Origin: an uncultured virus (IMG/VR IMGVR_UViG_3300030060_005186)
Taxonomy: Duplodnaviria > Heunggongvirae > Uroviricota > Caudoviricetes
Reading direction: 5' to 3' (one strand)
DNA length: 54,004 bases
IMG/VR virus record: IMGVR_UViG_3300030060_005186
The translations under genes were made by a program, and so were the position numbers. The notes under the pieces are model-generated. The model worked only from the letters and a program-made list of their open reading frames with translations. It searched no databases and was not told the DNA's origin. Positions within the stretch are counted from its first letter, which is position 1. Every line of letters starts with the position of its first letter. Positions 2,077 through 25,254 of this stretch are shown here, piece by piece.

Positions 2077-5000
2077 TTAAGCAAGATTCTTGAGAATTCT
2101 AAATGCGAAGTCTATTGGGTTGTCTGAGGAAGTGGACACTTCGTCATCAGATTCAGAGGGCTTTTCGGGGGGCTGTTCTGATGGACGAATGAATGCAGCA
2201 GGTGGTAAAGCAGCGTAAGCAGTAGTATCGGGCTTTTCGTCTGTCTCTCCCAGTTTCTCCCGCTCTTGCTCTTGCAATAACCTCGCGGTTGGTGTCCCGG
2301 TTGGTACGAACGCTCCTCTTCTCCTCGCAGCGAGTTGCTGTGCAGCCATATCTGCACCAGATGCGTCTCTTTCATCCATGGCATCTCGCGCAGCGCGAGT
2401 GGCTACGTTCCTGCCTCCCTGTCGTTGAGTTTCAGAGAGTCTTGGGTCCACTGGCTCTCCTGTGAGTTTCTCCTCCGCCCATGGAGACAGGCCCGGCCAA
2501 TCTGGATTCACGGCAGGAGCATCTGGGTCAAATTCGTTTCCACGAGTTGCTTTTCCATCGATTACCGCTTGCAATTCCCCCTCTCGTGAAGGAGTGTCTC
2601 CTACTCTTGGAGACATGAGGTCCGACGCTGAAGTGAAGGAGGGGTCTCTCACCGTCTCTGTCTTGTACGTCATTCCCTCTGGCAGTCGCACTTGCCTGTG
2701 GAGTTCCCTTGTCGAATTGGCATTGCTCTCTAAATCGGTTTGTATCTGCTGCAACTGCTCTTCATCGCCTGATTTCTTGGCAGAGTTATACGCCTTGTTC
2801 AATCTCCTGCGTTCTTGGTCGAGGCTCGCTTGCTCGCGTGACATCTCCAGCATGTCCAGTTCTGAGAAGTTAGGTGGTGCCATGAACCAATCTCGGTCAG
2901 ACAGGTCTGCCTCTGATAGGTTTATGCCGTGATGGAACAGAGCGATGCGGTCTTGCAACCCTCGTATCTGCTCTTCTGTCAAATCGATATCTCCAGTGTG
3001 GTACATGCGTAGCAGTTTGGTTGGGTCCCACTGCACCATTTCCTCGAAATGCCTTTGCAGACCAGAACTGATGTTCTTCTGATGATGGTTTATCATGCCA
3101 CCGGGATGTGGAGTCCATTCTACGACGGTTTCCCCCTCTCCTTCTTCTGCGCCCATCACTCTGCTCGGGATTTGAGCGCCTGTCTGGGTCCCTCGAGTAG
3201 CAGCCAAGGCCAGTGATATGGTGAAGTAGGGATTGCGGAAGGTGTTGTCTCCTTCTTCCTCTGGCTGGCTGGTCAAGGACATGGGTTCTGCTCTCAACTC
3301 GTAGAAGGTGTCATCGCTCTCGCCTTGGTACTCTAGGCTCCTCTTTCCAGACTCGGGGTCATCCCACGCGTAATTGTGGTTGTCCATCAGTTTGTTGCCG
3401 TAGGAGTTTACTGAGAAGAGAGGGTGGTACGCATAGCCTGAAGACCTGATTGTGTCTTTCGGTCTATCGAAGAGTGCATTGTAGGCGCTTTGCAAATCAG
3501 TAACCTCTTGGCTAGTGCTTCCTTTCTCCTTTATGGCCTTGCTTATCTTCTCCTCCAAGTCCGCGTGCTCTTTGTGCCATGCTTCACTGTACTCCATTTC
3601 CTTGATACGATGCGCTAAAGGCTCTGATTCCAAGACATCGAAGAGCGAATCTGCGTCCCAAGGAACGTCCTCTGTGACTATGTTCCCATACTCGTCACGT
3701 GTTCGTTGAGGGATGCTATCGAGTTCTGAGAGTTGCTTGTACAGCCAGTCTGGACCATAGCCTTGCTCTTCAAGACCTCTCTGAGAGAGAAGAGCGACGT
3801 CTTGAGTGGACATGCCCAACTTATCGGCTATGGCGTGAACGGGGTCTAGGAATTGCTCTAGTCTGTCTCTCAACACGGATAGAATCTCCTGACGGTTCAG
3901 GAGCCTGTCGAGTTTCTGCTGTTGCTCCTTGCTTGCTAGTGGATTCTCTATCCCTGTCTTCTCGGAGAACCTGTCTGCTGCCATCTCCATGACGCTCTGA
4001 TTGCCTAGCCGAGGGACTACCCACTCGTCGTCGAAGTATATCTCATCAGCGTATGGCTTTCCTGTTATCGGATTGATGTCATCCTCATTGACGACGCTGT
4101 GCGGCCCTTTGACTTTGAGAACGGAGTACCTGCAGTCCTCCTTGATTCTCGCAGCCTGCTCTCTCTCCTCAGGTGAGGAATTGGGGTCATTCAGTATCAT
4201 TTGTGCCTGTTCGGAGGCTTCGACCATCTGTCGTATCTCAGACTGGTAATCGAACGGGGAACCCTTGAACTGCGAGTTCATGTCAGAGGTTTCCGACGTG
4301 AGCATATCGGACAGTTTCTCCGCGAAGCCTTCCAAGTCGTCAGGGAAATCCAAGTCGAACTCACCACTCAGTCTCTCCGAGAGCAGGTACCCCTCATCAC
4401 CGAGGGAACTGGTATGCATGAGAATAGGTTTCAGAGTCGACATCAGGCTGCCCTTCGCTAATTCCCAAGCCTTCTCATCGGTCATATGAGCATGGGAAGG
4501 GCTTGAGAGCAATTCTTGGTAGGCCTCTGTCTCCGCATCGTCTTCTCTCATGGCTATTATGTCCTTCATGAGCGCTATGCGTTCTTTTGCGCTTTCAATC
4601 ATGAAGTCACGACGCAGTTGGGTCTGCCACCAGTTCTCTTCCGGTAGTGCGTGCTCCTCGAACCAGCCATCGTCACGGAGTTCTGCTAATTCGCTCTGTA
4701 GTTTTTCTATGGCTTGATTAGTCTGTGTGTTAGCGAGTCGCGTGGCTTTCTTCCACTCTCCTACTTTACCTGCGTTAGACGGGTGGTGCATTGCATAGGA
4801 GCGCAATTCCTCCATGAGAGCAGTGAGTTTGTACACTCTTTCCGCTTGTTTCAAAGCGTTTGCAGTATCGTCATCCCAAGGGGGAGTCAAGTAGCCTGCT
4901 ATTCCGCTTATCCACTGATAGGGCGATGAATCTAGCGTCTTCCACCTACGACCGCCCTTCAGTGTATTCTGCTGGGCTGCAAAGCGTTGAGATTGCGAGT

Positions 5001-8000
5001 AGTCCTCCTTGGCCGCGGATGTCTGCCTTCTCCACCCTCTCTGACTGACTCTGTGCTGCATTCTCGCCTGCCACTCGGAAAGGGAGTCCATCTTGCCACC
5101 TGTCAGTAAGTCATAGGCCTTCCTAAACTGCGAGAGGTAACCCTTGAGAGCGTCAGGGTCCTCGTTCCAACTTGGCAGATTGAGCGCCTCGAGTTTCTCA
5201 GCGTACTCATCCATATCCTTCTTCACGCTGTCCAGATACCTCTTTTTGGTCTCCTCTTCAGTCAACCCCCTTCTATCTCCTTCTGCGAGAATCTCATCCT
5301 GCATGTGCTTTGGGTAGATGTCCCATCCCCAGTCCTTTCTGCTGAAGTACCTGTTCAGGGGGAGTGTTTTACCCATCTTGTGAGTGTGCTCTAGTCCCTC
5401 TATCATCTGACGCAGTACGTACTCGTCTCTTGTCCTCAGCCTGTCATCGCTGCTTTCCATGTATGCGCTTCGATTGACATCGTCCTTGATTGACTTCTCG
5501 TACTTGGCCTCGCTAGCAGAGGCTCTAGCAGCCCTTGCGGTTCGCACGTGTCGATATGGGTCTCCAGTAGCGAGGTTCGATGGCGGGGTCCTGTCTCCGA
5601 GCAGACCTTTCCTGTCTTCCCTCAATTTCTCCGCTCTCAGTTTCTCTAGGTCTGTGTCCTCATCGAGTAACTCGTCTAACTTGTTCTCTTCGATGAAGGA
5701 TATCATGCTCTGTCCTAGTCTGGGCGTGGGGTTAGTCCCCGGATACATGGCTGCTATTCGCGCTGCTTCGTTTTGCATGTGCCTCTCTATCACGGGTATT
5801 ATCATGTGTTGGAACGAGTCTTCCATCCCCTCTGGGAGCAAAGAGATGCTATCACCGTCACAGGAGTTGCAGACCCCCTTGCTATCGCAGTAGGGACAGG
5901 AGTAACGTAGGTTCTTGACTCCCACGTTGTCACTCGGTGTTCCCGAGAATCGTGCTTCTCTGCGTGCTTGCTCCTTCCACCCCTCTTCGGAGTCTCCGTA
6001 ATGCCGTATAGTCCCATCATCCAGCGCCTTCTCTATGGCTCGCATCTCCTCATTTTCGTCATTCGCTCCCTCGGGAGATATCCCCCCTTCGTATATCAGG
6101 TACTGCCTCATGGCGTCGTAACTGATGTGCCCGTCTCCAGCGCATGAGAGACCTATCGGCCCGCTGCATCGCGTTTTTCCTCCAGTGACGTTGTTAGGGC
6201 CTTGGTTGTTCGTGGTGTACATCAACTCTCCATCTGGGGACAACTCGACACCGAACATCTTCCTCATGCGCTCCAATCTGGTCTTGGGATTCACGAGGCA
6301 GTCGAGAACGTCGTAACTGATGCTGTCGAACAACTGCGATAGAGCGTCGTTGAATTGGAAAGCGTGAGTGGTGTATATCGGGTCACCATTGTCGTTCAAC
6401 TCGAAGGGGTCGAATCCTAGCCCCTTTCCGTCTACTCTGGAGAGCATGTCCCATGCATACTTGACAATCTCCTCGTAAGCGGTCGGTTGGTTGAGGAAGT
6501 CAGGGCTCAACCATCGAGCAAGCGTTTCCCCATCAGGCCCTATATTTCCCTCTGCATTCTGCACCCCATTTATCAGAGGGAGAGTAATCCAATCGGGAAG
6601 TGCTCCTGTAAGAACCTGATTCATGTAGGTCTTTATCTGTTCCTTCGCCTCAGGCGTCATAGTGTCGTCGGCGTCTATGTGATGTGGTAGCCCCTTGGAA
6701 AACAGGACATTGGCGATGGGGAACATCTCATAAGGCTGAACGTGCCCGACGCTATTCGCTACGGGAGTCCCGTACAAGTTCCTCATTCTCAAGTCCAGCG
6801 TGTTCGTGTACGCATTGGTGTTGCGTAGCACTTCCAGTATGACATTAGGGGTCATGACCGGGCCGTCTTCCCCGAGGTGAGGAGTCTCACCTAAAGTACG
6901 CCCGAACTCATCCACCCATTTTCCAGTGTCAAAGTCGTATCTCTCTCGAGACCGTCGCTTTCTGTTGCCGGAGCGAGCGTCAACCACTCTCTTCGCATCG
7001 AATATGGTCTTCTTGGGCTCCACCTTCTCCTGATAGACAGGCCCACGGCCCCCTATCACTCTCAACGCAGGGACTTCCCTCTGCACTGTCTTCCCTTCTT
7101 TCGGGTCGTACCTAGGCTCTGACATCGTCATGCGAACTGTCCCGTCGTCGTTTCTGGCCATCGCTGTCTGCTCGGCCTCATTCAGTAAGTCTCGGGCCCA
7201 TCTGGTCGTTTTCGGCTTGACTGGAGACGTTCTCTCATCCATCTCGAACTGCGAAGTGCGTTCTTCGCCCGATACAGTGGGTTCGTCTCTGGTCATGTGC
7301 CCCAGTTCATCCACTAGCGTTGCGAGCGTTACATGCTGCTCGTATATGCCTCCATCGCTCTCGTCTTGCAGCAGCATTCTCAGGTCATCGGGCTCCATAT
7401 CGAACTTCTTCGCTAGAGCCTTCATCTTCTTGCCGTACTTCCAGCCTGTGGGAGTCTTCGTGGTAGTGACACCGGGGTACTTGCCGAGTATCGTCGCTTC
7501 TTGCGAGACGCCCGGTGCGAAGATATCACTGATTAGGTTGGTGCTTATCCGCCCATCATCATCTAGCATGCCCGGTTTGAGTGTCGGGGAGTCAGTCCGC
7601 ATTCCCGGCAGGAAATAGTCGAAGGGGGTATCGAACATCGACGTCATGGCTTGCATGCCAGTAGCAGGGGCTAAGCCTCCTCCCGGTCTTCTCATCAGCA
7701 ATCCAGCCTTGTCATCGTGGCTCCAATTGCTCTTCAACTTGTAGTCATACTCTGGAGTGCAATCCAACAGCGCCTCGTACATCATCATCAGACGCTTGTA
7801 CAAGTCAGTCTCTGTAGAACACCATTTCGCCATCTTATCGGAAGCCCCGAGTTCCTTCCAGTGGTCCTCCGTGACCTGTCCGCTCACTTTCCCATCCTCT
7901 TCTACGTCAAATAGATTGAGGAGGACACTCTGAGCGTACTTGAGGTACTCTATGCGGTCCGTGTAGTCATGGCTGGAGGTTTGCTTCTTTCTCCAGTCTG

Positions 8001-10218
8001 GGAGTGTGTCCCCCTCCTGCTCTGAGAACGTCGCTTGCATTCTCTTCTCGAAGTCACCATAGGGCATGCGGACCAAGGCTCTCTGCTGCCTAGCACTGCC
8101 CATCTCCTTCCTGCTGATGAGGTTCATGGTGGCGTAGAGTTTCTCCTTGGTGTCTTGCAACTCCTCAGACTTGGGCAGGGTGAAACTGTGGTACACGTGC
8201 TCGGCGTCATCCAAATCGAACGCCTCTGAGTAGTCTGCTAGTGAGAATTGCGGGTCCAACTCCTGCCCTAGTTGCTCTATCTCCTGATACAAGGCCATCG
8301 CCTCACCGCTAGACAGATTCGGGTCTCTCTGCAAGGCTCTCAGTTCAGCAAGGCGGTTTCTTCTGTCCTTCTGCGCGTACTTGAGTCGATTCATCTCCTC
8401 TCTGTGGGACATCTCTATAGCGTCGATTGTCTGTCTCATGCCCCTAGATTCAATGTGACCTTGGTCGTAGTTGGGGTGATGCAACGAGAAGCCCGTCCTT
8501 CTGCTAGCAAGCAACTCACTAGGGCTGCCTTCGCCACACATGCCGCACGAACAACCACCTCCGTGACGCCCGTTCCACGAGGAGACGAGGTTGTTCATCA
8601 GGATTCGATTGAATGCCATTTCCTCTCCCCCTTGGCCCATAACCCCTCCTCGCTCTCGCGTGACAACGCTATCCAGAAGGTCCTGCAACTGCTTTTTCCT
8701 ACTGTCCTGAGGTGCAGGTCGCCCCTCATCATCGATTAGGTCTTGGTTCTGGCTGAGTATCTCCCTTATGGCTTGCACGAAGTGAGACTTGTCGAAGGAA
8801 TCAGTCAGTCCCAAATCCCGTTTGAAATCGAGCAAGCGCTCTCCATCGGTCTCTAGCAACTCGTCTGCATCGAAGTAATTGCCCTTGCCCCAGTATGACA
8901 AGTCGAATATCTGGGGCGGGTATGAAGCGAATCCATGGGAGACTCCGATTCTGTTGTCCTCGTCGCCCATCTGGGCTATCCCCTTGGTATTCGGTAGGTT
9001 TCCCTCGTCTAGAATCTGCCTGAAAAGCCTCTCGTCCTTGTTCTTCTGCCTGTGTATCTGATAGGAGCGTGCAGGCTGTATCACCGTAGCCTCTAGGTAG
9101 TCCATCGCTTGCGTCATGGCTGCCATCAGCCTGCCTCGCAATGCCCCTTGGTTGACTTTACTGAATCTCCTCTCCCCCTCCTCTTCAAAACTGGTTTGCA
9201 ACCGCTCTATCTCAGCCTCTACGGCTGCGAGGTTCTGCGGGTTGCCGCGCTGCTCCCTCCTCTGTGCTCGAAGGCGGTCTAACTCGTCAAAACGGTCTAC
9301 CTCGTCGAACTCGTCGAGATGGCTCCCTAGGGCCTCTGCCAGTTCCGGGTCCATGACGAACATGGGCATGATTCGGGCCATCTGGTCCAAGATGTGCCTC
9401 TCTCCCAAGCCCGGAGGCAGGTCACGAGCGAATTTCTTCAGTATTATCCTAGCCTGCTTCTCCTCCTCTCGCAATCTCTCCAACTGCTCTTGCCGCTCTG
9501 GAGCATCCAAGCCCGGCCTAGGAAGCCAAACCATGTTCTTGTTTCTATCTACATCCCACTTGAACAACTTGTGCCTGCGCCAGAGGTATCTCCTCAACTG
9601 GGCTTGGGGGTCCCTCCAGTTGTAACGCATTCCCTTGTCCTTGTCGAGTACGTTGGATATCTCACCCGCCTTCAGGAGGAACGCCCCTTCTATGAAGGTC
9701 CTCATCTCAGAGGAGAGGCTGTCATACCCACTCTTGAGACTGTCCTGTATGCTTTCCAGCACTTTGATTTCTTGGTCGTCAGGCTCGTTGGACAACACTG
9801 GCGAATCGCCGTATATCTGGCTCCTCTCCTTGGATAGGTTCTGCCTGCCTCCCACTATCCTAGTGGCTTGCTTCGCCATTGCATCTATCCGGTTGTCTAT
9901 GTCGTACATCTCCATGCGTCGCTCTTGAATCTCATCGCCCTGCGTCGGGTCCAACTCAGAGATTTCCTCTTCCAGTTTCTTCTTTCTACTTTGCAACTGC
10001 TCTAGTTCATTGGAGGTTATTGTCTGGAATTGGTCTAGGAAAGCGTCCTCAATGCTAGTGAATTCGGCTTTCTCTTTCTTCTTGCCTTCTAGAAGGTCCT
10101 CAGGGTCGCTAATACCTTGCTCTTCGAGGTCCGCTTCGTACTCCTCGAACTCCTTCTCCTTCTCTTCGTCCGTTTTGTCCTTCTTGAGAACAGACCACCA
10201 TGTCTTACGACCGGACAC
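2077..10218 (-). CDS. Giant acidic protein (2713 aa), possibly an internal virion/ejected protein
   Basis: Uninterrupted 8.1-kb ORF; coiled-coil stretches and Cys clusters (CSCGMC, CPYCDSKGVCNSCDGD); no catalytic family recognised. Confidence 0.6.
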   Translation of the reverse strand: MSGRKTWWSVLKKDKTDEEKEKEFEEYEADLEEQGISDPEDLLEGKKKEKAEFTSIEDAFLDQFQTITSNELEQLQSRKKKLEEEISELDPTQGDEIQERRMEMYDIDNRIDAMAKQATRIVGGRQNLSKERSQIYGDSPVLSNEPDDQEIKVLESIQDSLKSGYDSLSSEMRTFIEGAFLLKAGEISNVLDKDKGMRYNWRDPQAQLRRYLWRRHKLFKWDVDRNKNMVWLPRPGLDAPERQEQLERLREEEKQARIILKKFARDLPPGLGERHILDQMARIMPMFVMDPELAEALGSHLDEFDEVDRFDELDRLRAQRREQRGNPQNLAAVEAEIERLQTSFEEEGERRFSKVNQGALRGRLMAAMTQAMDYLEATVIQPARSYQIHRQKNKDERLFRQILDEGNLPNTKGIAQMGDEDNRIGVSHGFASYPPQIFDLSYWGKGNYFDADELLETDGERLLDFKRDLGLTDSFDKSHFVQAIREILSQNQDLIDDEGRPAPQDSRKKQLQDLLDSVVTRERGGVMGQGGEEMAFNRILMNNLVSSWNGRHGGGCSCGMCGEGSPSELLASRRTGFSLHHPNYDQGHIESRGMRQTIDAIEMSHREEMNRLKYAQKDRRNRLAELRALQRDPNLSSGEAMALYQEIEQLGQELDPQFSLADYSEAFDLDDAEHVYHSFTLPKSEELQDTKEKLYATMNLISRKEMGSARQQRALVRMPYGDFEKRMQATFSEQEGDTLPDWRKKQTSSHDYTDRIEYLKYAQSVLLNLFDVEEDGKVSGQVTEDHWKELGASDKMAKWCSTETDLYKRLMMMYEALLDCTPEYDYKLKSNWSHDDKAGLLMRRPGGGLAPATGMQAMTSMFDTPFDYFLPGMRTDSPTLKPGMLDDDGRISTNLISDIFAPGVSQEATILGKYPGVTTTKTPTGWKYGKKMKALAKKFDMEPDDLRMLLQDESDGGIYEQHVTLATLVDELGHMTRDEPTVSGEERTSQFEMDERTSPVKPKTTRWARDLLNEAEQTAMARNDDGTVRMTMSEPRYDPKEGKTVQREVPALRVIGGRGPVYQEKVEPKKTIFDAKRVVDARSGNRKRRSRERYDFDTGKWVDEFGRTLGETPHLGEDGPVMTPNVILEVLRNTNAYTNTLDLRMRNLYGTPVANSVGHVQPYEMFPIANVLFSKGLPHHIDADDTMTPEAKEQIKTYMNQVLTGALPDWITLPLINGVQNAEGNIGPDGETLARWLSPDFLNQPTAYEEIVKYAWDMLSRVDGKGLGFDPFELNDNGDPIYTTHAFQFNDALSQLFDSISYDVLDCLVNPKTRLERMRKMFGVELSPDGELMYTTNNQGPNNVTGGKTRCSGPIGLSCAGDGHISYDAMRQYLIYEGGISPEGANDENEEMRAIEKALDDGTIRHYGDSEEGWKEQARREARFSGTPSDNVGVKNLRYSCPYCDSKGVCNSCDGDSISLLPEGMEDSFQHMIIPVIERHMQNEAARIAAMYPGTNPTPRLGQSMISFIEENKLDELLDEDTDLEKLRAEKLREDRKGLLGDRTPPSNLATGDPYRHVRTARAARASASEAKYEKSIKDDVNRSAYMESSDDRLRTRDEYVLRQMIEGLEHTHKMGKTLPLNRYFSRKDWGWDIYPKHMQDEILAEGDRRGLTEEETKKRYLDSVKKDMDEYAEKLEALNLPSWNEDPDALKGYLSQFRKAYDLLTGGKMDSLSEWQARMQHRVSQRGWRRQTSAAKEDYSQSQRFAAQQNTLKGGRRWKTLDSSPYQWISGIAGYLTPPWDDDTANALKQAERVYKLTALMEELRSYAMHHPSNAGKVGEWKKATRLANTQTNQAIEKLQSELAELRDDGWFEEHALPEENWWQTQLRRDFMIESAKERIALMKDIIAMREDDAETEAYQELLSSPSHAHMTDEKAWELAKGSLMSTLKPILMHTSSLGDEGYLLSERLSGEFDLDFPDDLEGFAEKLSDMLTSETSDMNSQFKGSPFDYQSEIRQMVEASEQAQMILNDPNSSPEEREQAARIKEDCRYSVLKVKGPHSVVNEDDINPITGKPYADEIYFDDEWVVPRLGNQSVMEMAADRFSEKTGIENPLASKEQQQKLDRLLNRQEILSVLRDRLEQFLDPVHAIADKLGMSTQDVALLSQRGLEEQGYGPDWLYKQLSELDSIPQRTRDEYGNIVTEDVPWDADSLFDVLESEPLAHRIKEMEYSEAWHKEHADLEEKISKAIKEKGSTSQEVTDLQSAYNALFDRPKDTIRSSGYAYHPLFSVNSYGNKLMDNHNYAWDDPESGKRSLEYQGESDDTFYELRAEPMSLTSQPEEEGDNTFRNPYFTISLALAATRGTQTGAQIPSRVMGAEEGEGETVVEWTPHPGGMINHHQKNISSGLQRHFEEMVQWDPTKLLRMYHTGDIDLTEEQIRGLQDRIALFHHGINLSEADLSDRDWFMAPPNFSELDMLEMSREQASLDQERRRLNKAYNSAKKSGDEEQLQQIQTDLESNANSTRELHRQVRLPEGMTYKTETVRDPSFTSASDLMSPRVGDTPSREGELQAVIDGKATRGNEFDPDAPAVNPDWPGLSPWAEEKLTGEPVDPRLSETQRQGGRNVATRAARDAMDERDASGADMAAQQLAARRRGAFVPTGTPTARLLQEQEREKLGETDEKPDTTAYAALPPAAFIRPSEQPPEKPSESDDEVSTSSDNPIDFAFRILKNLA

Positions 10219-13440: not shown

Positions 13441-13656
13441 ATGAATTACCCTGCATTTGGAGATGGAGAGATTGAGGACGCTTTCAACAAGGAGGCTAAG
13501 CAGTTGCAATTGAGATTGTGGAAGGCTATGAGCAGAGTGGAGAGGATATTCGTAGCCAATCGCCTCGATGTGGAGTGCCCTGTCGATACTCCATGGCCAA
13601 CGATGTTCATCGACCTCAATGGCTACATCAGGGATGCAAATGGGAGGTTTTTGTGA
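13441..13656 (+). CDS. Small hypothetical protein
   Basis: Likely start MNYPAF; stop overlaps the next start. Confidence 0.55.
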   Translation: MNYPAFGDGEIEDAFNKEAKQLQLRLWKAMSRVERIFVANRLDVECPVDTPWPTMFIDLNGYIRDANGRFL

Positions 13657-15581
13657 TGACACCGTATGTATGGAGACCACTACCCGGCCTCGATGAGGAG
13701 ACTCTGAGGGAATTGTATGAGCGTCGAGGTATGTCCGTGAGAGAGATGTCTGAACATCTTGGTCGTACTCGGAACACCATCAAGAAGCACTTCCAGATGT
13801 TCGGGATTCAGATAATGCCACAGGAGTACATCGACCGTCCTGACATTGCAACAGAGGAGATTCACGATTGGTTCCAAGCCGTATTGGAGGCTAGCGGTGT
13901 GGAGAGGATAGACAGCGAGTCTGGCTACCCATTGGAGATGCTACCAACCATGTTCGACCAGATTATCATGCATCCATCGCAGAAGGAGATGTTCAATATC
14001 TCCAAGCCGGTGTTGAACAGCAAGAACGTCTTCGAGATGAGGATACTCGTCACTCTCTTCCGTCCCGAGTTGATTAGAGGAGAGATTACGGTGAAGGGTC
14101 TGAGGCACACTACGTCCTTCGTTCAAGCATTCACGAGGTTCTACCCAGAAGAGGCTCTGCCATACTTGGCAGACAATCTGTGGAGATTCAAGCGTCCTAC
14201 AAGGGAGAAACTCATGCCCTCCGGTATCACATCGGACTACCAACTATCGAATGGGAGGCCCAACTACCACTTGGTCTATCCCATCCTGAAACTCATCCAT
14301 GAGAGGTGGACTCAACACTTGGGCAGACCGCTGACTTGTGAGGACTTGTACGAGTCTCCCCGCATCTCAGTGCAGGATGGTGAGTACGAGGGTCAGTTGG
14401 GGCTGTTGGACATGGATTGGTTCCCGAAGGAGGCTTGGTATCCTCTCTTCGACCAGATGAAGCGCCACACCGGGGCTTACTACACTCCTGTGGAGGATGC
14501 TATCGGCATTGCCAACGAGAAGTACTATCGATTCTATCGTGACATGGAGAGGTTCTTCGTGAGGAGAGGCGAACAAGGGAGATTCGAGGATAGCGAGTGG
14601 AACACCTACGACTACCTCATCGCTCACAATCACAAGTTTGCAGCAAGGGAGAACTTCCTATGGCGGAGACTAGATGTGCTACGGGATTGGTTCGTTCGTG
14701 GTCTAGGTGGACATCATGGTGAACTCATGCATGAGAGTTGGGAGAACTTTCCAGACTCAGCATCACGCCGCCTTCTCAACAAGGTGGAGAACATGAGGAT
14801 AGCCATGCTCAGACACATCCCCTTCTATCAGCAAGCGGCAGCAGGTGTGAGTTACAGCACACCAAACATGACTTCGCTCAACCCCTCGATACTGCACTTC
14901 GTCACTCTGCTGTGGCCTAACTTCGATTGGGACTACATCAAGTTGGAGAGGAACATCGGTAGCGAGGACTTCCTCAAGGAACATCTCATTCACTTCACGG
15001 ACGATGATACTGTGATACTCACCAAGACGATTGATTGCAGGTTGTGGAAGCCTAATGGCTCACGACTCCACTACCCTCCCAACGAGCATACTGAGAGGCC
15101 CGGCCCGATGTCCTTTGACATTATGCTACCGAAGTATGGCGTCATATTCGAGTTGCAAGGTGGACAGCACTACGATGAGGGTGCATTCGAGGGTGGTCGC
15201 TTCTCAACGGAGGAACGAGACGAGTTCATAGTCTACTCACAAGACCTAGCAACTAGGCAGTTCCACGACAGAACCAAGAAGGCGTATGCATATCGGAGAG
15301 GATGGCTCACCATCTATGTCCCTTGTGCACCGAATGCTCGCCCTGTCAAGGGAGTGCATGGCCCTCTGTCATGCTGGAACTTCAACATGACCAACGAGAA
15401 GACGGTACACTCAGACAGGAGGAACACCTACGGCTACCCCTACGAGGGTTTGCTCGAACTCATCGATACACAGGTCTCCAATTGGAGGAAGCCTGACCAT
15501 GTGCAGAGAGGCACAGCGCTGCTCGCAGAACTGCGAGCCAATTACGAACAACACTCGCCATCATATGGAGAGGAGGCATGA
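13653..15581 (+). CDS. HTH + C-terminal Vsr/DUF559-like PD-(D/E)XK endonuclease (possible homing/restriction-like nuclease)
   Basis: N-terminal HTH (MSVREMSEHLGRTRNTIKKHF); C-terminal FDIMLP...IFELQGGQHY...HDRTKK motif; GGAGG RBS at 13643. Confidence 0.7.
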   Translation: MMTPYVWRPLPGLDEETLRELYERRGMSVREMSEHLGRTRNTIKKHFQMFGIQIMPQEYIDRPDIATEEIHDWFQAVLEASGVERIDSESGYPLEMLPTMFDQIIMHPSQKEMFNISKPVLNSKNVFEMRILVTLFRPELIRGEITVKGLRHTTSFVQAFTRFYPEEALPYLADNLWRFKRPTREKLMPSGITSDYQLSNGRPNYHLVYPILKLIHERWTQHLGRPLTCEDLYESPRISVQDGEYEGQLGLLDMDWFPKEAWYPLFDQMKRHTGAYYTPVEDAIGIANEKYYRFYRDMERFFVRRGEQGRFEDSEWNTYDYLIAHNHKFAARENFLWRRLDVLRDWFVRGLGGHHGELMHESWENFPDSASRRLLNKVENMRIAMLRHIPFYQQAAAGVSYSTPNMTSLNPSILHFVTLLWPNFDWDYIKLERNIGSEDFLKEHLIHFTDDDTVILTKTIDCRLWKPNGSRLHYPPNEHTERPGPMSFDIMLPKYGVIFELQGGQHYDEGAFEGGRFSTEERDEFIVYSQDLATRQFHDRTKKAYAYRRGWLTIYVPCAPNARPVKGVHGPLSCWNFNMTNEKTVHSDRRNTYGYPYEGLLELIDTQVSNWRKPDHVQRGTALLAELRANYEQHSPSYGEEA

Positions 15582-15585
15582 AACA

Positions 15586-15987
15586 ATGAAAAAAACGTAC
15601 TACAAGAGACAGTATTATGACAACAAGAAGGGACGCTTTGTGACCAAAGTGAGTACCGACATTGGCAAACTAGTTGCCAAGAACGAGGTATTCGGAATAA
15701 CGAGGGCAGACGGCACAGTCCGTGACCCTCCGGTCACCAGAATCAGCAAGAGGGAGTACGAGATACTCAAGAGAGGTTGGGGTGATGACTCCATCGCTCG
15801 GCCCGTGTACTGGTTCGACCAAGTCAAGGGGGTAGGAGACAGCAATGACGGCTACATCTACGGCATAGAGTACATGGACGGAGAGGAAATTGCCGATTGC
15901 GAGTGGTTCGAGACAGAGACACAGAGAGATAGCGTGCTCAAGGAGTATTTCGAGAATGTATCAGTATTGATGGGGGAGGAAGAATGA
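15586..15987 (+). CDS. Hypothetical protein
   Basis: Start MKKTYY after GGAGG; coupled to the next gene. Confidence 0.6.
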   Translation: MKKTYYKRQYYDNKKGRFVTKVSTDIGKLVAKNEVFGITRADGTVRDPPVTRISKREYEILKRGWGDDSIARPVYWFDQVKGVGDSNDGYIYGIEYMDGEEIADCEWFETETQRDSVLKEYFENVSVLMGEEE

Positions 15988-18900
15988 CAGACGAGACACA
16001 GGAGACAATTGACGACATAATGAAGGCTATCACCAGCGGAGACTACGGCTCCAAAGGGCAGATGGAGAAGGTACAGGAGATGGTGAACAACCTGTACAGC
16101 CCCGCTGTCGTTCTGGAAGACCAGAGATACGCCGCCTTGGGTGAGAGTCTCTATGTCACCACTCATCTAGGTGCGAAGAGACCCATACTAGGGGATGAGA
16201 AGAGGCAGTCTCTGCCTATATTGAGAGCCGATGTCGATAGTCTCGCTTCACTTCTCACAGTCCTCCAGAGATTGGGAATACTACAGCAAGTGTTGGCGGA
16301 GGACTATGTGATACGCAGATACCTCCCCAATCAGCAGACTATCATCTCCCGCATGGTGAAAGACATCGAGGAATCTTCTGCCGGGAAGAGAGTCATAATC
16401 ATACAGGCTCTCAGTGGCTATCTAGCCCACCTGCTATCGGATTTGATGGAAGAGGAGAAGAACCAACTCAACGCCGTGCAGAGGAGCATTTCCCTTCCTG
16501 CGACTACCATCGCTTGGATTAGGCAGAACACCGACTCGGAAGGGAACGTGGACTATCGTGCTATGGGCAAATACTTCCACGATATGAGGAAGGAGGGGTG
16601 TGGCTCCGGTACGAGTGCAGCCCTCAGCGTCATGTCCGGCTTGTTCCGCTGGTCTACCGAACCCTCACTACCAAGGAAGTCGCAGAAGGCCAGAGGCATA
16701 CAGGCCATGAGCGGTGACGACTACGCGAGGACTCACTGGCTATGGCAGGTCAAGCCGTCCATGTTCCTCTCATTGGAGGATTCTACACAGGCGACTGCTT
16801 CCGAGTTGATGGCTAGCATGAGAGTCGCATTCGGCACTATCAAGGAGGTTTTCAAGAGTGGCATCTTCATCAGGACTTGCCCAGCCTCCCCTAGGCCGGG
16901 CGCTCTGGAGAACGTGAAGGCACATACTCCTGCTGAGTTGCTCAAGGGCATCAGATACCTCGGTAGAGGGATGCTGGATGAGGACTGTGCGGATTACGAC
17001 CCGGAGGGCTGTCTGTGCGTCATGCCATTCATCCCACCATCCTGCTCTGCTGTTGCTGTCGTTGGTCACAATGAGATAGTGATGGGGCCGAGTTTCGATG
17101 GTGTCACAGCAGGTGGGGGTAGCAATGTCATCATCCCAATCGCCCAAGAGTTGGCCATCAAGATGAAGCATGAGGTAGAGGATATGGGACTAGGTGATGG
17201 CATGGACAACCACGAGATTGAACTCGTATGGAACAACGACAGATACTCCGGCAGTTCAACCCCCTATGGGACCAGTGTCGTCAAATTCAAACGAGCAGTC
17301 CAGACATCGGCGTACGACAAGGAGACTCTGCCTATCATCACGCAAGTCAGGGGCTTGCATGAGGCGAAGGTCAGCCTTACTCCCCCACCTGTCGTGGATG
17401 GGGAGACATTGACTGTGCGAGGCAACATCCCTGACGGTGTGGTGGAGCAGCAGACTCACATCAACGTCGGCAGTGGTGATTTGTCCGAGTGCATCAACCT
17501 CGAGCAACTAGCGGAGAAGGGAGAACTACCTGATGGGCTTGTGGTGTATGCACCTAGTGGCTCTTCCAATGCTCACGTTGCCGGTGTCGGCATCCAGTGG
17601 GACATTCCAGTTATCTATGGCATCCTACCGAGGGAGAATGGCACCGTCTGGACTGAGATATCAGGTTGGGTGACAGACATCGAGGGAGCCGAGCCCACTA
17701 CGTACAAGCCATCCGCTCTCAAGGAGTTCTTCTTCATGGGTTGCAATGATGGTGACAAGCATTGGGACTATGGCTACCACGTCCTCTCTCAATTCTTCCA
17801 CACATACCTTACCGGGCCTCGCAACGACCCGAGATTCGAGGCTTACTTGGGTGGCTTCTACTCAGCATGGATTCTCAAGGCTACTCTCGCAGTAGCGATG
17901 GGCGAAGTGAGACACGCTTTCGGTGGTAACAAGGCAAAGATGCACCCAGTGCATGGTGCCATTCACGCTTATGTGATATCTGCCCTAGCAGGTGAGAGCG
18001 ACCCTTCACTAGGTGGTAGAGGAACTTACTACAATCTGCTCAAGAACAAACCAGTGGGCATGCACAACCTGAAGTTGATGCTTTCTTGCTACGAGAGGTT
18101 GTTCAACGAGCCGAATTGGCCATCTTCATACGGTGGCAACAACTACTACGAGTCCGTCAACAAGGCCACTAAGGTGGCTAGCACTCTAGACACGCTCATG
18201 AACACCCACTACCATCCTACATCAGAGGAAGAGATGTTCAAGAGGTTGCTCGGTGAGATTAACACCTTGGAGAATGCGGTGCACAACTGCGCATTCTTCT
18301 TCAACAAGTTCGTTGCAAACAAAAAGTGGTTCGACATTGGCACTAGCCATCACAGCAACACATCGAAGTTGGAGCATCAGTATCACGTAGTCTCTGCTTT
18401 GCAGTACCACTTCTACACCGAGATGGACGAGCCGCATCACCTCTCGAGCCAGTTGGTCGAATATCACCACCATTGGACGACGGCACAGTACAATGAGGGA
18501 CTGTCTTCAAAATACCAACTCGAACTACCCGATGTCTTGGATTACTTGTCTCTGTGTAACATAGATGACAACTTGGAGGCGGTGGCTTGCGACACCATGG
18601 CCGAGGCTGTGGTTACATTCACAATCCAAGGCAATTCTATTCACCATCTTGGTACTTGCACTCTCCACGGCTGTGACTTAGTCAAGTGTCAGGAGTTGCA
18701 GAGTGCCTCCCAGTGGGGTCTAACTGCCACTGAACTCAATACTCTGACTCAATTGCTTGTGAGTGCACCCAAGCCCTTCGGGCACATGACTCCCATAGCC
18801 ACTCCGGTTTCGAGTTCCCCCATGGAGGTTGTATTCGCTAGCGAGATAGACAAAGAGGCAGGACTTGTGTACGACTCTAACTCAACCATCTTCACCGACA

Positions 18901-19505
18901 CTGAGAGATGGACTGAGCCTAGCCAGCAGTCTTGGAAAATTGACGCCGAGAAAATGAAATTCGTACCACACTGGTCGTTGAGAGGCAAGCACTCTCTACT
19001 CGATTGGGGAGAGGTGCCTGTCTTCGTTGGTAACAAGTGCAGTTCCATGTATCCTCAAAAGCAAGTCAACCTCCTCATCGAGATACTAGGTGACGCATTG
19101 TCGAGGTTCGATGCACGGACTCTTACCACTCACTTCTTCGCTATCTTGAAGATTGATGGAAATTGGGACTTCAAGGTAAGAGACTACTGCGGGAAGCACG
19201 ACTTCTCCGATGTGGTTAGGACTATTGAGAGATTCCTCACTGCTATCAACGTCATATCCCAAGGCCTGTTCAAGTTCGCTAAGACTCACCCGATGATAGT
19301 AGCGGGTGACATGTCACGGACTGACGTGTACACAGATTGGCGCAGGTGGACAACTAGAGACGCATTGCTCTGGGCTCTCATGACGCAGATAAGCAACGAA
19401 ACAAGCCAACCATTCCATACGTGGGTATTGCCCACCACTGACATACTGAAAACATTCCAGAATGAATTCGGCAACGAGTTCGTGAAGGAGGTGCTACAAC
19501 AATGA
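15984..19505 (+). CDS. PPDK/PEP-synthase-like protein: ATP-grasp + phosphohistidine swivel domain + unknown C-terminal domain
   Basis: IRTCP..PRPGALE, VMPFI...SAV, EIELVW and ITQVR resemble ATP-grasp motifs; GSSNAHVAGVGIQWDIPVIYG resembles GGxTSHAAIxARExGIPxxxG (His531). Confidence 0.65.
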   Translation: MTDETQETIDDIMKAITSGDYGSKGQMEKVQEMVNNLYSPAVVLEDQRYAALGESLYVTTHLGAKRPILGDEKRQSLPILRADVDSLASLLTVLQRLGILQQVLAEDYVIRRYLPNQQTIISRMVKDIEESSAGKRVIIIQALSGYLAHLLSDLMEEEKNQLNAVQRSISLPATTIAWIRQNTDSEGNVDYRAMGKYFHDMRKEGCGSGTSAALSVMSGLFRWSTEPSLPRKSQKARGIQAMSGDDYARTHWLWQVKPSMFLSLEDSTQATASELMASMRVAFGTIKEVFKSGIFIRTCPASPRPGALENVKAHTPAELLKGIRYLGRGMLDEDCADYDPEGCLCVMPFIPPSCSAVAVVGHNEIVMGPSFDGVTAGGGSNVIIPIAQELAIKMKHEVEDMGLGDGMDNHEIELVWNNDRYSGSSTPYGTSVVKFKRAVQTSAYDKETLPIITQVRGLHEAKVSLTPPPVVDGETLTVRGNIPDGVVEQQTHINVGSGDLSECINLEQLAEKGELPDGLVVYAPSGSSNAHVAGVGIQWDIPVIYGILPRENGTVWTEISGWVTDIEGAEPTTYKPSALKEFFFMGCNDGDKHWDYGYHVLSQFFHTYLTGPRNDPRFEAYLGGFYSAWILKATLAVAMGEVRHAFGGNKAKMHPVHGAIHAYVISALAGESDPSLGGRGTYYNLLKNKPVGMHNLKLMLSCYERLFNEPNWPSSYGGNNYYESVNKATKVASTLDTLMNTHYHPTSEEEMFKRLLGEINTLENAVHNCAFFFNKFVANKKWFDIGTSHHSNTSKLEHQYHVVSALQYHFYTEMDEPHHLSSQLVEYHHHWTTAQYNEGLSSKYQLELPDVLDYLSLCNIDDNLEAVACDTMAEAVVTFTIQGNSIHHLGTCTLHGCDLVKCQELQSASQWGLTATELNTLTQLLVSAPKPFGHMTPIATPVSSSPMEVVFASEIDKEAGLVYDSNSTIFTDTERWTEPSQQSWKIDAEKMKFVPHWSLRGKHSLLDWGEVPVFVGNKCSSMYPQKQVNLLIEILGDALSRFDARTLTTHFFAILKIDGNWDFKVRDYCGKHDFSDVVRTIERFLTAINVISQGLFKFAKTHPMIVAGDMSRTDVYTDWRRWTTRDALLWALMTQISNETSQPFHTWVLPTTDILKTFQNEFGNEFVKEVLQQ

Positions 19506-20122
19506 AAAACATAGTACAAGAAAATATGATGAAACACGAAATAGCGCAGGCGAAAGACCCAAACTCGGAGGTTTGGACTTGGCCTGAGGGGTCATTGCAG
19601 TCTGGCCCTTACGCTCAGTTGAGCGTAAAAGTATCACATATGCACGGTGGGAAGTTGCACTTCCAATTCACCTGTGCTGATGTGGAGGGGCTTCACAGCG
19701 ATATGGAGGAGGAACTAGGGACACCGTTCATTTTCCTCGCAGATACTGCGCTGAGGAACTACGGTGCGTCGTTCAATCTATCCGTTCAGTACGGGTCGAT
19801 AGATGCGAACAACCTACAAGGCTTGGCGAAAGCCATCGAGAGTGAGGAGGATTGCTTCGTACAATCCTGTGCTAGCGATGCCAAGGACTACGCTGTGGCG
19901 CAGTTCTGCGGTGTGGTGGATGGCGTGGACAACAAGGGAATGGAAGTCAAGATGCTGGATTTCAGAGTCGGGGCTGAGTCGAACAGGATGCTGATAGCAT
20001 TCAGTCACGTGCCCTCGATAGTCAACAAGGAGTCGATGAACTACCCCGAGATGAGGGGAGAGTGGTTCCTCGCTTGGCTATGCTCCCGGTACTTCGTCAA
20101 CGATACACAGGAGGAAGAGTGA
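19502..20122 (+). CDS. Hypothetical protein
   Basis: ATGA-coupled; GGAGG RBS. Confidence 0.7.
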   Translation: MKNIVQENMMKHEIAQAKDPNSEVWTWPEGSLQSGPYAQLSVKVSHMHGGKLHFQFTCADVEGLHSDMEEELGTPFIFLADTALRNYGASFNLSVQYGSIDANNLQGLAKAIESEEDCFVQSCASDAKDYAVAQFCGVVDGVDNKGMEVKMLDFRVGAESNRMLIAFSHVPSIVNKESMNYPEMRGEWFLAWLCSRYFVNDTQEEE

Positions 20123-20398
20123 ATGGATTTGGATATAGTCACTATCGCTCTCAATCTCATGATGTCCGATTACAAGGACAATGGGAATATCGATGATACA
20201 GCCAAGCAGTTCCCGGCTAGTATGTTGCTGGAGGCTCTTGTGAGAGGCAAGAGCAGTCTCACAAGCGTCAAGCCTGCTCACAAGAACCTGTTACTACGGG
20301 TGATTGGTGCATTGGAGATGACTCTGCACATCGACGAGACTGTTGTGCGTTGCCAGATAGACGGTTTGGATGAGAGTATCATGAAGGAGTTGGTATGA
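20123..20398 (+). CDS. Hypothetical protein
   Basis: Abuts both neighbours. Confidence 0.65.
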   Translation: MDLDIVTIALNLMMSDYKDNGNIDDTAKQFPASMLLEALVRGKSSLTSVKPAHKNLLLRVIGALEMTLHIDETVVRCQIDGLDESIMKELV

Positions 20399-22224
20399 TG
20401 GGTTACGGACAATATTCTGGTGGATGGACTGGTCACTCCACGTACCAAAGCAAGTCTTACCACAGCGAATGCCACAGTGGCAATCCTCTGGTTTTCACTA
20501 CTCACGATGGCATCGAGGTATATGCCGGTGGTAGCAGTCGTAGTGGTGGTTGGTGGAAGATGAATCCACTACCGGAGTTCGCCATGGGCCCAGACAGTGA
20601 GGTTAGGAAGGGTTACAGCCAACTCAGAGTAGACACCAAGGGCAAGAACATGGAAGGATGGTCTTGCATCAAGGTGATAGAGGAGAAGACCCCTCCAGCA
20701 GTGTTGGAGATGGACTTCCCTGACTACGGGGTACCGAGAGACTGCACTGTGGAATTCTGGGTGGCCCTAGCGGCAGACCTCAGAGAGAGGGGCATCAAGA
20801 CTGTCCATGCCATGTGCATGGGTGGTCACGGCAGGACTGGTATCCAACTAGCCTGTCTTCGATGGCACCTAGCAACCGAGGAAGAGAGGAAGGCTTGGCC
20901 TGACGCTCACACTCTAATCACCCACATTCGGGACAACTACTGCCAGAAGGCCGTCGAGGCTGACAAGCAGCAGGACTACGTAGCCAAGATGTGCGGCATA
21001 CCCTCAGGTAAGGAATTGGGGTTTCACAAGTATCAAAGTACCACGAAGACGACCACCAGTGCTGGTACGGTTTCTAAAGCAGCGAAGACCTCACTGACTC
21101 CTCACAACAGGTCACTGCTAGAATGTGACCAATGTGACCTGCACCTTTGGGAGGACGACAAGGTGTATGATGCAGAGGAGGAGGAACTGTGCTACGACCA
21201 CACGTGCAACGGCCACTTCATGGATGTCACGGAATTGACTGTCAAGAGAAGCCTGCTGCAAGATGTAGACATGTACCAAGTCTGCCTTGCTACACTCGAT
21301 GTATGCTCTGACGTGAGTGGTTACGAGTTCGGTGTCCTCAATGAGGAGATAATGGAGAAGATGCATGGCAAGGAGTGGCCCAAGTTGATGGACAGGCTGA
21401 TGTCACAGAATGGCAAGATGACAGTTCGTGGCAAACTACTGAGAGCATTGCATCAGGAGTTGAAGAAGCCCACGGCAGACAATGTGCTAGTGTGCTACTA
21501 CGACAGCATCACCTCCCCGAAAGTCGAAGACCACATCACTGAGTCCTACACAGGCAAGTCCAAGAGGAGCCTCAGGACTTGGAAGGAATGTGGCTTCTGC
21601 GCCACTACGATATCACCAGACAGGCTGTCTGTCGCCTACGTAGTGCAAAACGGCAAGGAGTTGGCTAAGACCTGCTGCCCTGAGTGCATGGTGCACAGCC
21701 AACTAGAACTGCGACCTGCTCTAGAGACAGGGAAGGCAGGCATCGTGAAGTTCAAGGACGAGGAATACACCATGGTAAACGGTATCAGCCCTCAGCAGAT
21801 TCTAGTTGCCAAGACTCTGCGAGACGATAACAAGAGCCATTGGGACGCAGAGGACGACGATGAGTTTGATGACATCATACTCAATTTCGATGACAAGCAA
21901 AACACAATCACCCAAACAGGTGGTAGGACTCTGGAGGACTACGCTGACCTCAGCCCTGCCGAGAAGCAGGAATGGGCAGCAGACATAATCGAAGAGTATG
22001 GGTTGGAGGAACTCCCAGATGACGAGATAGACCGGGGACTCCTCGAACTTGGCCTCAATAGTGCGGAGTTGAAGAAGGCACAAGCCGAATACCTATCGAA
22101 GAAGAATGACAGCATCGATGTCGATACCCTGATGGCTATTGACGACCAGAGCGTCGAAGATTACTTCGACTATGACAATGTCGACCCCAAGTACGGGGGC
22201 AACAACAAGGAGGAAGAAGAATGA
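20395..22224 (+). CDS. Cys-based (PTP/dual-specificity) phosphatase with Zn-binding motifs and acidic tail
   Basis: FPDYGVP acid loop, HAMCMGGHGRTG (CX5R, Cys141), AVEADKQ Q-loop; CDQC, CGFC and CPEC motifs downstream. Confidence 0.85.
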   Translation: MMGYGQYSGGWTGHSTYQSKSYHSECHSGNPLVFTTHDGIEVYAGGSSRSGGWWKMNPLPEFAMGPDSEVRKGYSQLRVDTKGKNMEGWSCIKVIEEKTPPAVLEMDFPDYGVPRDCTVEFWVALAADLRERGIKTVHAMCMGGHGRTGIQLACLRWHLATEEERKAWPDAHTLITHIRDNYCQKAVEADKQQDYVAKMCGIPSGKELGFHKYQSTTKTTTSAGTVSKAAKTSLTPHNRSLLECDQCDLHLWEDDKVYDAEEEELCYDHTCNGHFMDVTELTVKRSLLQDVDMYQVCLATLDVCSDVSGYEFGVLNEEIMEKMHGKEWPKLMDRLMSQNGKMTVRGKLLRALHQELKKPTADNVLVCYYDSITSPKVEDHITESYTGKSKRSLRTWKECGFCATTISPDRLSVAYVVQNGKELAKTCCPECMVHSQLELRPALETGKAGIVKFKDEEYTMVNGISPQQILVAKTLRDDNKSHWDAEDDDEFDDIILNFDDKQNTITQTGGRTLEDYADLSPAEKQEWAADIIEEYGLEELPDDEIDRGLLELGLNSAELKKAQAEYLSKKNDSIDVDTLMAIDDQSVEDYFDYDNVDPKYGGNNKEEEE

Positions 22225-22352
22225 ACAGAGATTTTGGAAACAAGCGAACGAATGACGAATACAAGAGGTTCATGGCAATGTCCCATGAGCAACTTGCGGT
22301 GTATCTGATTAGGTACAAGACCCACAAGGGTGACTTGGAGGTGACAGTATGA
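22221..22352 (+). CDS. Small hypothetical protein (43 aa)
   Basis: Not in ORF track; ATGA overlaps at both ends. Confidence 0.5.
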   Translation: MNRDFGNKRTNDEYKRFMAMSHEQLAVYLIRYKTHKGDLEVTV

Positions 22353-24494: not shown

Positions 24495-24694
24495 GGACGC
24501 AAGAGGCGGTGCTTGACAACCTGCACAACCTAGCGGCTCTCTGTCGTGACTTCATTGATATCGGAGAAGACGAGGAGGTCTGGAGAAGACACCTGCTGAC
24601 TGTCGAACACGCAATCACACTTATTACTGAGTACAACGTATTGTATGAGGGTTTGATTGAGATAGTTGATTCATGGAAGGAGGAAGAGGAATGA
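24491..24694 (+). CDS. Small hypothetical protein
   Basis: GAGGTGA RBS; ATGA overlap. Confidence 0.6.
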   Translation: MRTQEAVLDNLHNLAALCRDFIDIGEDEEVWRRHLLTVEHAITLITEYNVLYEGLIEIVDSWKEEEE

Positions 24695-25254
24695 ACATAT
24701 TCGTATTGCACACAGAACCAGACAAAGCAGCACGGCAGATGTGCGACAAGCACGTACCTAAGATGATTGTCGAGTCAGCGCAAATGATGGCATCAGCCGT
24801 GCGTAGGTATGGTGCTACTGACGAGGACATGCCACTGACCAAAGCCGGAAAGCCGTACAGGGGAGGTTACAAAAATCACCCATGCACAATCTGGGCGGGA
24901 GATACCTTCGGCAACTTCGCATGGCTGACTGACCATGCCATGGCGCTGTGTGTTGAGTACACATCGCGCTTCGGTAAGAAGCACGCGTGCTATGATGCTA
25001 TCGTCACTCTGTATGGTCTGGGTATGAACTGGATAGGTACGGGTTTAGGCCATGAAAGGACACCGTTCGCTCTGGCCATGCCCGATGAATTTAGGCCAAT
25101 CACTACTGACGGAGAAATGGCATACCATGCAGAGGACATCGATGCAGTTCAGGCATACCGAGCCTACTACCACAGCAAGACGTTTGCCAAGTGGGAGAAG
25201 GGGAGAGATGCACCATGGTGGTGGCAAGGAGTGAATGAGATATGCTCTGCATAA
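24691..25254 (+). CDS. Pyrimidine-dimer DNA glycosylase (T4 endonuclease V-like family)
   Basis: MNIFVL...CDKHVPKMIVESAQM, HPCTIW, EYTSRFGKKH, FALAMPDE, AYRAYY. Confidence 0.85.
   Translation: MNIFVLHTEPDKAARQMCDKHVPKMIVESAQMMASAVRRYGATDEDMPLTKAGKPYRGGYKNHPCTIWAGDTFGNFAWLTDHAMALCVEYTSRFGKKHACYDAIVTLYGLGMNWIGTGLGHERTPFALAMPDEFRPITTDGEMAYHAEDIDAVQAYRAYYHSKTFAKWEKGRDAPWWWQGVNEICSA

Follow-up and report, generated by a model that had tools for sequence, protein, structure and literature searches.

What would a virus phosphorylate with a dikinase-like enzyme that lacks the pyruvate-binding barrel, and what is the role of the phosphatase encoded beside it? The question is raised by four plus-strand genes at positions 15984..22224 of a 54,004-nt stretch of DNA from the uncultured virus IMGVR_UViG_3300030060_005186 (the window, by which we mean the whole stretch analysed). 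An earlier note, made from the DNA letters alone, had described a dikinase-like phosphohistidine enzyme, coupled through two small genes to a CX5R phosphatase, and had proposed that they write and erase a phosphate mark. All four open reading frames (ORFs) that it described are present:

15984..19505, plus strand: 1173-amino-acid (aa) dikinase-like phosphotransferase; ORF with 49 homologues and 960 representatives at E<=0.001
19502..20122, plus strand: 206-aa third module component; conserved family, in 67/78 magrovirus-like clusters
20123..20398, plus strand: 91-aa accessory gene; confined to the long-form lineage, in 14/78 magrovirus-like clusters
20395..22224, plus strand: 609-aa cysteine phosphatase; CX5R P-loop, phrog_17568 (E 1e-14)

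Sequence comparison and structure models led us to favour, with a probability of about 0.45, the reading that kinase and phosphatase would form a virus-encoded reversible phosphorylation switch acting on a protein.

A dikinase-like core with a helical domain in place of the barrel

The kinase divides into five parts, two of them placed by comparison with rifampin phosphotransferase (RPH) and pyruvate phosphate dikinase (PPDK):

15984..16619, plus strand: N-terminal extension, residues 1-212; in long magrovirus-type forms (mean identity 0.18 among them), absent from 500-900-aa relatives
16647..17378, plus strand: ATP-grasp nucleotide-binding domain, residues ~222-465, by structure match; K235, R297, R304, T375, E413, Q454, R456
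17379..17693, plus strand: swivelling phosphohistidine domain, residues ~466-570, by alignment to the RPH/PPDK His domain; His531 codon at 17574-17576
17697..18428, plus strand: all-helical putative acceptor domain, residues 572-815; E641-x-R643-H644, G717-G718, H767-N768, K775; homologous to stand-alone phrog_20946
18429..19502, plus strand: variable C-terminal extension, residues 816-1173; H887/C892/C897/C902 metal-binding-type motif; mean identity 0.12-0.18

Direct sequence searches with the 1173-aa protein found no match in Pfam, PHROG, NCBIfam, PDB sequences, or cultured phages. PF01326 and PF00391 did not match it either; PF00391 gave weak matches in 4/70 distant homologues, and a broad kinase profile matched His domains only, and weakly (E 0.18-0.26). 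The core common to kinase relatives spans residues ~213-815 and is held whole by relatives of 495-600 aa, with variable extensions around it; within the aligned C-terminal extensions, H887 is kept in 43/43 and C892, C897, and C902 each in 42/43. Residues R297, P300, G306, T375, R456, H531, E641, R643, W712, G717, G718, H767, N768, and K775 are invariant in a 143-row alignment, in which the seven ATP-grasp residues listed above have conservation values of 0.91-1.0. No viral locus was found for kinase subgroup A7.

An AlphaFold2 model of residues 213-819, built from a 100-row alignment, reached a pLDDT of 90.6 and a pTM of 0.92. The ten best Foldseek matches to it include PPDK (1dik, E 7.9e-6), RPH (E 9.9e-5), and phosphoenolpyruvate (PEP) synthase (E 2.3e-4). 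In VIA comparisons, model residues 1-358, which cover the ATP-grasp and His domains, aligned to RPH 5hv2 over 281 residues (Z 10.7, rmsd 3.9) and to residues 2-513 of PPDK 1dik over 291 residues (Z 10.5, rmsd 4.3), and the ATP-grasp domain aligned to RPH 5hv1 over 193 residues (Z 8.7, rmsd 3.3); HpeI also appeared in the structure search, with Z 6.7. This confident model predicts that residues 213-819 form an ATP-grasp and histidine-swivel donor unit. It thereby bears out the two folds that the earlier note had expected; His531 is where the note had placed it and is kept in 143/143 rows, and the SYGG and VHNCAFFFNK stretches that it had picked out lie at residues 715 and 766.

In PPDK and PEP synthase (1dik, 2ols), the ATP-grasp, central His domain, and acceptor follow each other in the same order as in the window kinase, and its motifs line up by eye with phage PPDK sequences; identity is ~10%, however, and the PEP/pyruvate beta/alpha barrel expected after the swivel is absent from the modelled stretch, where residues 572-815 are all-helical. 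Modelled alone, this domain again has helices only (pLDDT 90.3), which agrees with the replacement of the barrel by a new helical domain proposed earlier. Structure searches with the domain alone returned generic helical bundles (best Z 7.9), a result that does not prove a new fold, and gave no BFVD match at E<=0.001. The rifampin-binding-domain fold was not listed in the structure search, and a feature search placed Rph_4th clusters at 0.80-0.81, a level that chance matches also reach.

RPH from Lm (5hv1, 5hv2; PMC4844700, cited here and below from the part of its text available) is the best structural match and shares the combination of ATP-grasp, swivelling His, and a non-pyruvate acceptor domain. 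It differs in its order of ATP-grasp, rifampin-binding domain, and C-terminal His domain, whereas His531 of the window kinase stands between the ATP-grasp and the helical domain, and in having no dedicated phosphatase described in that part of the paper, whereas the window kinase has a neighbouring one. The second phosphate transfer in RPH requires Arg666 and Glu667 of a conserved Arg/Glu/Lys set in the acceptor domain (PMC4844700); E641-x-R643 and K775 resemble this set by eye, which suggests a similar role by analogy.

The invariant residues of the helical domain are common to 100 fused and 7 stand-alone rows, and the fused domain matches stand-alone phage proteins at E 1e-8 to 1e-13 (set of 18). 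In an unrooted tree of 111 helical domains, the 47 magrovirus-like rows group together (SH-aLRT 99), and so do 10 rows of the split forms described below (92). One kinase homologue occupies two ORFs (874 and 333 aa; L003:992-4631), with the break placed after its helical domain; its contig has ambiguous bases, and the division may be an assembly error.

A cysteine phosphatase accompanies the kinase across viruses

The phosphatase gene encodes two recognisable regions:

~20452-21030, plus strand: catalytic domain of protein tyrosine phosphatase (PTP) type; P-loop C141-T148 at 20815-20838
~21124-21687, plus strand: clusters of Zn-finger-type cysteines, with an acidic tail after them

The CX5R motif and Zn-finger-type cysteines that had been read from this protein are well conserved among its relatives. 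The P-loop C141-MGGHG-R147-T148 is invariant in 65/65 aligned phosphatases, as are D107 and D110 of the general-acid Asp loop and Q192 of the Q loop, and C244, C247, C271, C428, and C431 are at least 90% conserved. A consensus of phosphatases across 90 diverse loci likewise keeps the dwpD loop, C.GGHGRTG, and AvE...Q. PF22784 and PF22785 match the window protein below their cut-offs (E 0.002-0.004), and a profile of the family can be aligned with PTPN12 at its WPD loop and P-loop (E 0.07). By its CX5R(T/S) P-loop, Asp loop, and Q loop, the protein is, as judged from sequence, a member of the cysteine-based PTP/dual-specificity phosphatase superfamily. We rejected the PHROG label 'thymidylate synthase' for this family, whose members match PTP families. 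Apart from scattered Zn ribbons and two hexapeptide repeats, no common additional domain emerged when 57 extensions of the kinase and 83 phosphatases were scanned with Pfam.

Loci fetched with kinase queries (201 in all, comprising viral and metagenome loci, seven of nine genome loci, and the window) were grouped at 95% identity into 132 clusters. Of these distinct loci, 124/132 have the phosphatase, as do 71/74 at 50% identity; the eight loci without it all end at a contig edge, with 0-738 bases remaining after the kinase. Two partial matches were left out of the pool: L158, which has a phosphatase, and L159, discussed below. Among the first 96 clusters, the phosphatase lies directly after the kinase in 82, after a gap in eight, before the kinase in one, and on the other strand in one. 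In the reverse direction, a kinase or helical-domain gene is found beside the phosphatase in 64/68 phosphatase-fetched loci, and the four misses start at most 480 bases from the locus edge (one of them, L201, adjoins L006 on the same contig). Many contigs are in both sets, and the two tests are not independent. The two genes are thus not distributed independently, as the proposed pairing required. Two patterns of one subgroup scanned on 185,579 prokaryotic genomes yielded nine loci, which suggests, within the limits of this two-pattern scan of sequences, that the module is mainly viral.

Among the 47 loci outside the magrovirus-like group, no additional gene cluster is found in more than seven, so the pair is not embedded in any fixed metabolic pathway; clustering 2044 ORFs by BLAST revealed no modifying-enzyme cluster that recurs beside the pair within the 6-10 kb flanks. 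Stand-alone RapZ C-terminal-domain genes with a CxGGxHRS-type loop (PF22740, 7/7 above cut-off) occur in 7/47 of these loci. The gene is directly upstream of the kinase in three (L053:5409-5828, L062:5556-6011, L089:5427-5813), the other carriers being L054, L077, L091, and L099, and a second phosphate-handling partner is a possible role for it. L099 also carries a pair of phosphatases 1.4 kb upstream of its kinase and encoded on the other strand (L099:2558-4527), and its contig carries a second kinase-phosphatase pair (L048).

Glucan, water dikinase (GWD) offers a known case of a dikinase writer opposed by CX5R phosphatases, of the laforin/SEX4 type, on a polymer. GWD has carbohydrate-binding modules and its His domain precedes a C-terminal ATP-grasp; in the window kinase the ATP-grasp comes before the His domain, and Pfam scans of the window, the kinase extensions, and the phosphatases contained no carbohydrate-binding module. 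HpeHI resembles the pair in using dikinase chemistry followed by dephosphorylation within one system, and differs in being a catabolic route with a carboxylation step, according to the available part of PMC12167813; no such enzyme recurs beside window-type pairs. Our literature search found no description of the module; supplementary gene tables, which may name the genes, lay outside its scope.

A split form of the module in cultured phages

Through the phosphatase we reached a split form of the module in cultured Vibrio (SIO-2-like), Rhizobium (RHph_TM16), Stenotrophomonas (Delepquintavirus), and Rhodobacter (RcZahn) phages. In all four cultured phages viewed, the phosphatase shares its block with genes for two further proteins, one of 647-734 aa that is annotated as pyruvate phosphate dikinase and a hypothetical one of 326-357 aa. 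The latter is phrog_20946, in which the E-x-R-H, GG, HN, and K residues of the helical domain are found again. The split module thus holds the same helical domain and phosphatase family in one gene block; it differs from the window in its separate genes, its near-PPDK donor, its one or, often, two phosphatases of the same family, and a phrog_25950 gene instead of the 206-aa family. Helical-domain records from phages number 41, representing few lineages and including closely related phages and duplicates, and 39 of them are also among the 60 PPDK-like matches listed. The fused donor is too divergent for Pfam and the split donor is close to true PPDK; in the simplest reading of these sequences, one acceptor domain and one phosphatase family would be paired with two different donors.

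The phrog_25950 gene follows the phosphatases in L226-L229 and is conserved in the split module. It is labelled 'pyruvate decarboxylase' in one Vibrio phage, where it has no Pfam match, and the second phosphatase of phage DLP3 is labelled 'thymidylate synthase'; both labels look wrong.

Are these genes ordinary auxiliary metabolic PPDKs or PEP synthases, with the phosphatase as an unrelated neighbour? The best Foldseek matches of the fused core are indeed PPDK, and the split-form donors are annotated, and one has been published, as glycolytic PPDK: the available part of PMC12038007 treats the Vibrio phage protein in this way, describes a barrel in its predicted model with an overlap with 1GGO over residues 1-527, and lists the phosphatase as a gene separate from the PPDK. 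Yet all four cultured-phage proteins match PPDK_N and PEP-utilizers and none matches a barrel family, and the donor at L217 covers positions 3-538 of the 865 of TIGR01828 (E 5e-143). The helices-only domain after the swivel of the fused form and the linkage in 124/132 loci, which is unlike that of an unrelated neighbour, also speak against this explanation, and we regard it as highly improbable.

The two small genes and their junctions

The four genes are joined, in order, by an ATGA overlap, an abutting TGA-ATG, and a second ATGA overlap, with a purine-rich Shine-Dalgarno-like stretch upstream at each junction. The start/stop overlaps behind the proposed translational coupling are therefore real; the part given to the two small genes is not general, since the kinase and phosphatase directly abut in most relatives. 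The neighbours on both sides overlap as well (ORF 15499-15987 with the kinase start and ORF 22221-22352 with the phosphatase stop), so that such overlaps are not specific evidence for a functional link; comparative linkage is.

Other magrovirus-like contigs carry a 130-170-aa gene, mostly placed after the phosphatase, to which the 206-aa protein is homologous (HHalign probability 91%, E 9e-7), and the family has the invariant residues Q55, R85, Y87, G88, S122, and Y130. A joint profile found it in the 67/78 magrovirus-like clusters listed above and in only 3/54 other clusters, and we therefore consider it a branch-specific third part of the module; among the 11 magrovirus-like misses, two have the gene just past the flank and nine have at most 1.8 kb downstream. 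The 206-aa protein matched nothing in Pfam or the PDB, and its family showed no similarity to phrog_25950 (HHalign probability 0.2%). It is a candidate substrate or regulator; a complex prediction with the kinase core scored 0.00, which is no evidence either way. Co-occurrence of all four genes, which the earlier note had put forward as a check, extends to the kinase, the phosphatase, and, in the magrovirus-like branch, the 206-aa family, and fails for the 91-aa gene.

Possible substrates of the pair

The fold and the conserved residues K235, R297, T375, R456, and H531 indicate that, very probably, the ATP-grasp domain would cleave ATP and place the beta-phosphate onto His531 with release of AMP and phosphate, as in RPH. 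The swivel would then likely carry the phosphate to a site formed by E641, R643, H644, H767, N768, and K775 of the helical domain, and from its linkage the CX5R phosphatase is, with high likelihood, part of the same system. The last step, to which we give slightly less than even odds overall, would transfer the phosphate to a protein residue, in a host target, the 206-aa protein, or the helical domain itself; the phosphatase would remove the same phosphate, and the state would be on early in infection and off later. We favour a protein target because the phosphatase has tyrosine-phosphatase-like WPD and Q loops, both enzymes bear variable cysteine-rich extensions, and no pathway enzyme recurs beside them. 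We also count in favour of a switch that the invariant polar residues of the helical domain are retained where an unrelated PPDK-derived donor serves it, and that kinase and phosphatase distances in their trees correlate (rho 0.66 over 90 pairs, 0/500 permutations as high).

The same acceptor site can be read differently. It is a small invariant polar set common to archaeal and bacterial viruses, and the closest solved relatives of the core are small-molecule dikinases, as would fit a small-molecule substrate present in all hosts, such as a nucleotide, sugar phosphate, cofactor, or defence signal, on which the phosphatase would reverse the reaction or remove a different phosphate in a two-step route. 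HpeHI starts such a route of phosphorylation, carboxylation, and dephosphorylation (PMC12167813, in the part available), and the RapZ C-terminal-domain genes in 7/47 non-magrovirus loci, three of them directly upstream of the kinase, point the same way. We nevertheless consider a small molecule somewhat unlikely: no modifying enzyme recurs beside the pair, and long variable extensions would be unnecessary for a small ligand.

A nucleic-acid substrate, with either polynucleotide kinase/phosphatase-like end healing or the reversible addition of phosphate to a modified base or sugar of viral DNA, appears improbable. PTP-SAK, which is linked to RNA repair, is the commonest phosphatase match, and a DNA polymerase lies a few genes downstream in 4/4 cultured phages viewed; the module of the window, by contrast, is 16 kb from its family B polymerase (PolB), and a crude ligase-motif screen gave one match in 2044 neighbouring ORFs. 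Phage DLP3 carries the split module, and its DNA was resistant to 15/15 restriction enzymes, but this phage also has a glycosyltransferase (PMC7326821, in the part available).

Several observations weigh against a dedicated switch on a protein. The Pfam matches of the phosphatases are mostly PTP-SAK and Tc-R-P, neither of which is specific for proteins. PTP-fold enzymes act also on RNA, lipids, and glucans, and GWD phosphorylates glucans. Other characterised relatives phosphorylate small molecules, namely rifampin (PMC4844700) and hydroxyphenylethanones (PMC12167813), as given in the available parts of these papers. It is difficult to imagine one conserved host protein serving as the target in archaea and in many bacteria as well, and a correlation of tree distances such as that between kinase and phosphatase is expected for any linked viral genes.

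Incomplete sets of genes count against it as well. The partial match L159 has a cut helical-domain gene and no phosphatase in the 5 kb downstream. On a complete 89-kb contig (G006), helical domain and phosphatase are both encoded, and neither PF00391 nor the fused profile revealed a donor, an absence that is weak because PF00391 also misses the swivel of the window kinase. The 595-kb phage LR756511 has two tandem proteins of 949 and 694 aa, each beginning with the helical domain (L232:7338-12283); its 16-kb locus lacks a phosphatase, and a donor was not found in its record. Bacillus phage G, conversely, has a donor and no helical domain found in its genome; its barrel-less PPDK-like protein, the top BFVD match, adjoins an FtsZ-like gene (gp138-gp139, L231:4519-6810). 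The stand-alone helical domain of G006 (L216:4575-6678) has C-terminal CxxC pairs and overlaps the phosphatase, and it may borrow a phosphohistidine donor from the host.

Source virus and genomic context

The gene content of the window is that of a tailed archaeal virus, with a family B polymerase, clamp loader, primase, ERCC4 nuclease, SNF2 helicase, 3'-5' exonuclease, thermosome, and tail-fibre genes. Six genes that characterise magrovirus group A are present: unsplit PolB, clamp loader, primase, DnaQ-like exonuclease, thermosome, and SNF2 helicase. The SNF2 helicase has been assigned to group A and the thermosome to groups A and D (PMC5434244, in the part available), and on the strength of these two we call the window group A-like; it resembles these viruses of Poseidoniales by gene content. 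Its host is probably among marine archaea; the same source gives magrovirus hosts as uncultivated at the time of description. The closest matches of the window PolB among cultured viruses are haloviruses (~25% identity), and the polymerase is common to 5/5 tested relatives at 43-90% identity, these five magrovirus-like contigs having been picked by presence of the module.

The module sits ~16 kb ahead of the polymerase, in a run of small genes close to the beginning of a long block on the plus strand; judging from this position, its genes are probably expressed early in infection. Scans of the region for promoters (10 against 11.2) and terminators (7 against 8.2) were at chance level, and no RNA holder was listed for it. 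Two genes upstream, a 687-aa ORF (13518-15581, plus strand) has an N-terminal helix-turn-helix and weak homing-endonuclease matches, and is possibly a mobile insertion. A 2713-aa ORF at 2077-10218 on the minus strand, which faces away from the module and has no Pfam or PHROG match, is probably a virion protein. Downstream, at 24673-25254 on the plus strand, is a pyrimidine-dimer DNA glycosylase-like gene (PF03013) with relatives near the module in 13/96 loci.

Implications

With this module, the dikinase family gains an acceptor domain for which no solved relative was found and which, in viruses infecting two domains of life, is linked to a dedicated phosphatase. The published glycolytic reading of phage 'PPDK' genes is called into question, because the proteins have no barrel match and stand beside the same acceptor domain. 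The split form in cultured phages, whose hosts are harmless, makes the substrate question directly testable, and if the target is a protein, the pair would represent a protein-kinase chemistry that we did not find described in the literature searched.

A wider proposal, which we hold to be doubtful, is that a dikinase-type histidine relay serves as a protein kinase signalling system common to archaeal and bacterial viruses. The helical domain would be its core and would take phosphate from any available phosphohistidine donor, be it the one fused to it, a barrel-less PPDK that the virus has captured, or, in viruses lacking a donor, a PEP-linked enzyme of the host. It would pass the phosphate on to a protein mark or itself hold it as one, and the CX5R phosphatase would erase that mark. 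If this were true, the virus would read the ATP/PEP state of its host and time infection by it, and the 206-aa protein would be the switched component in magroviruses.

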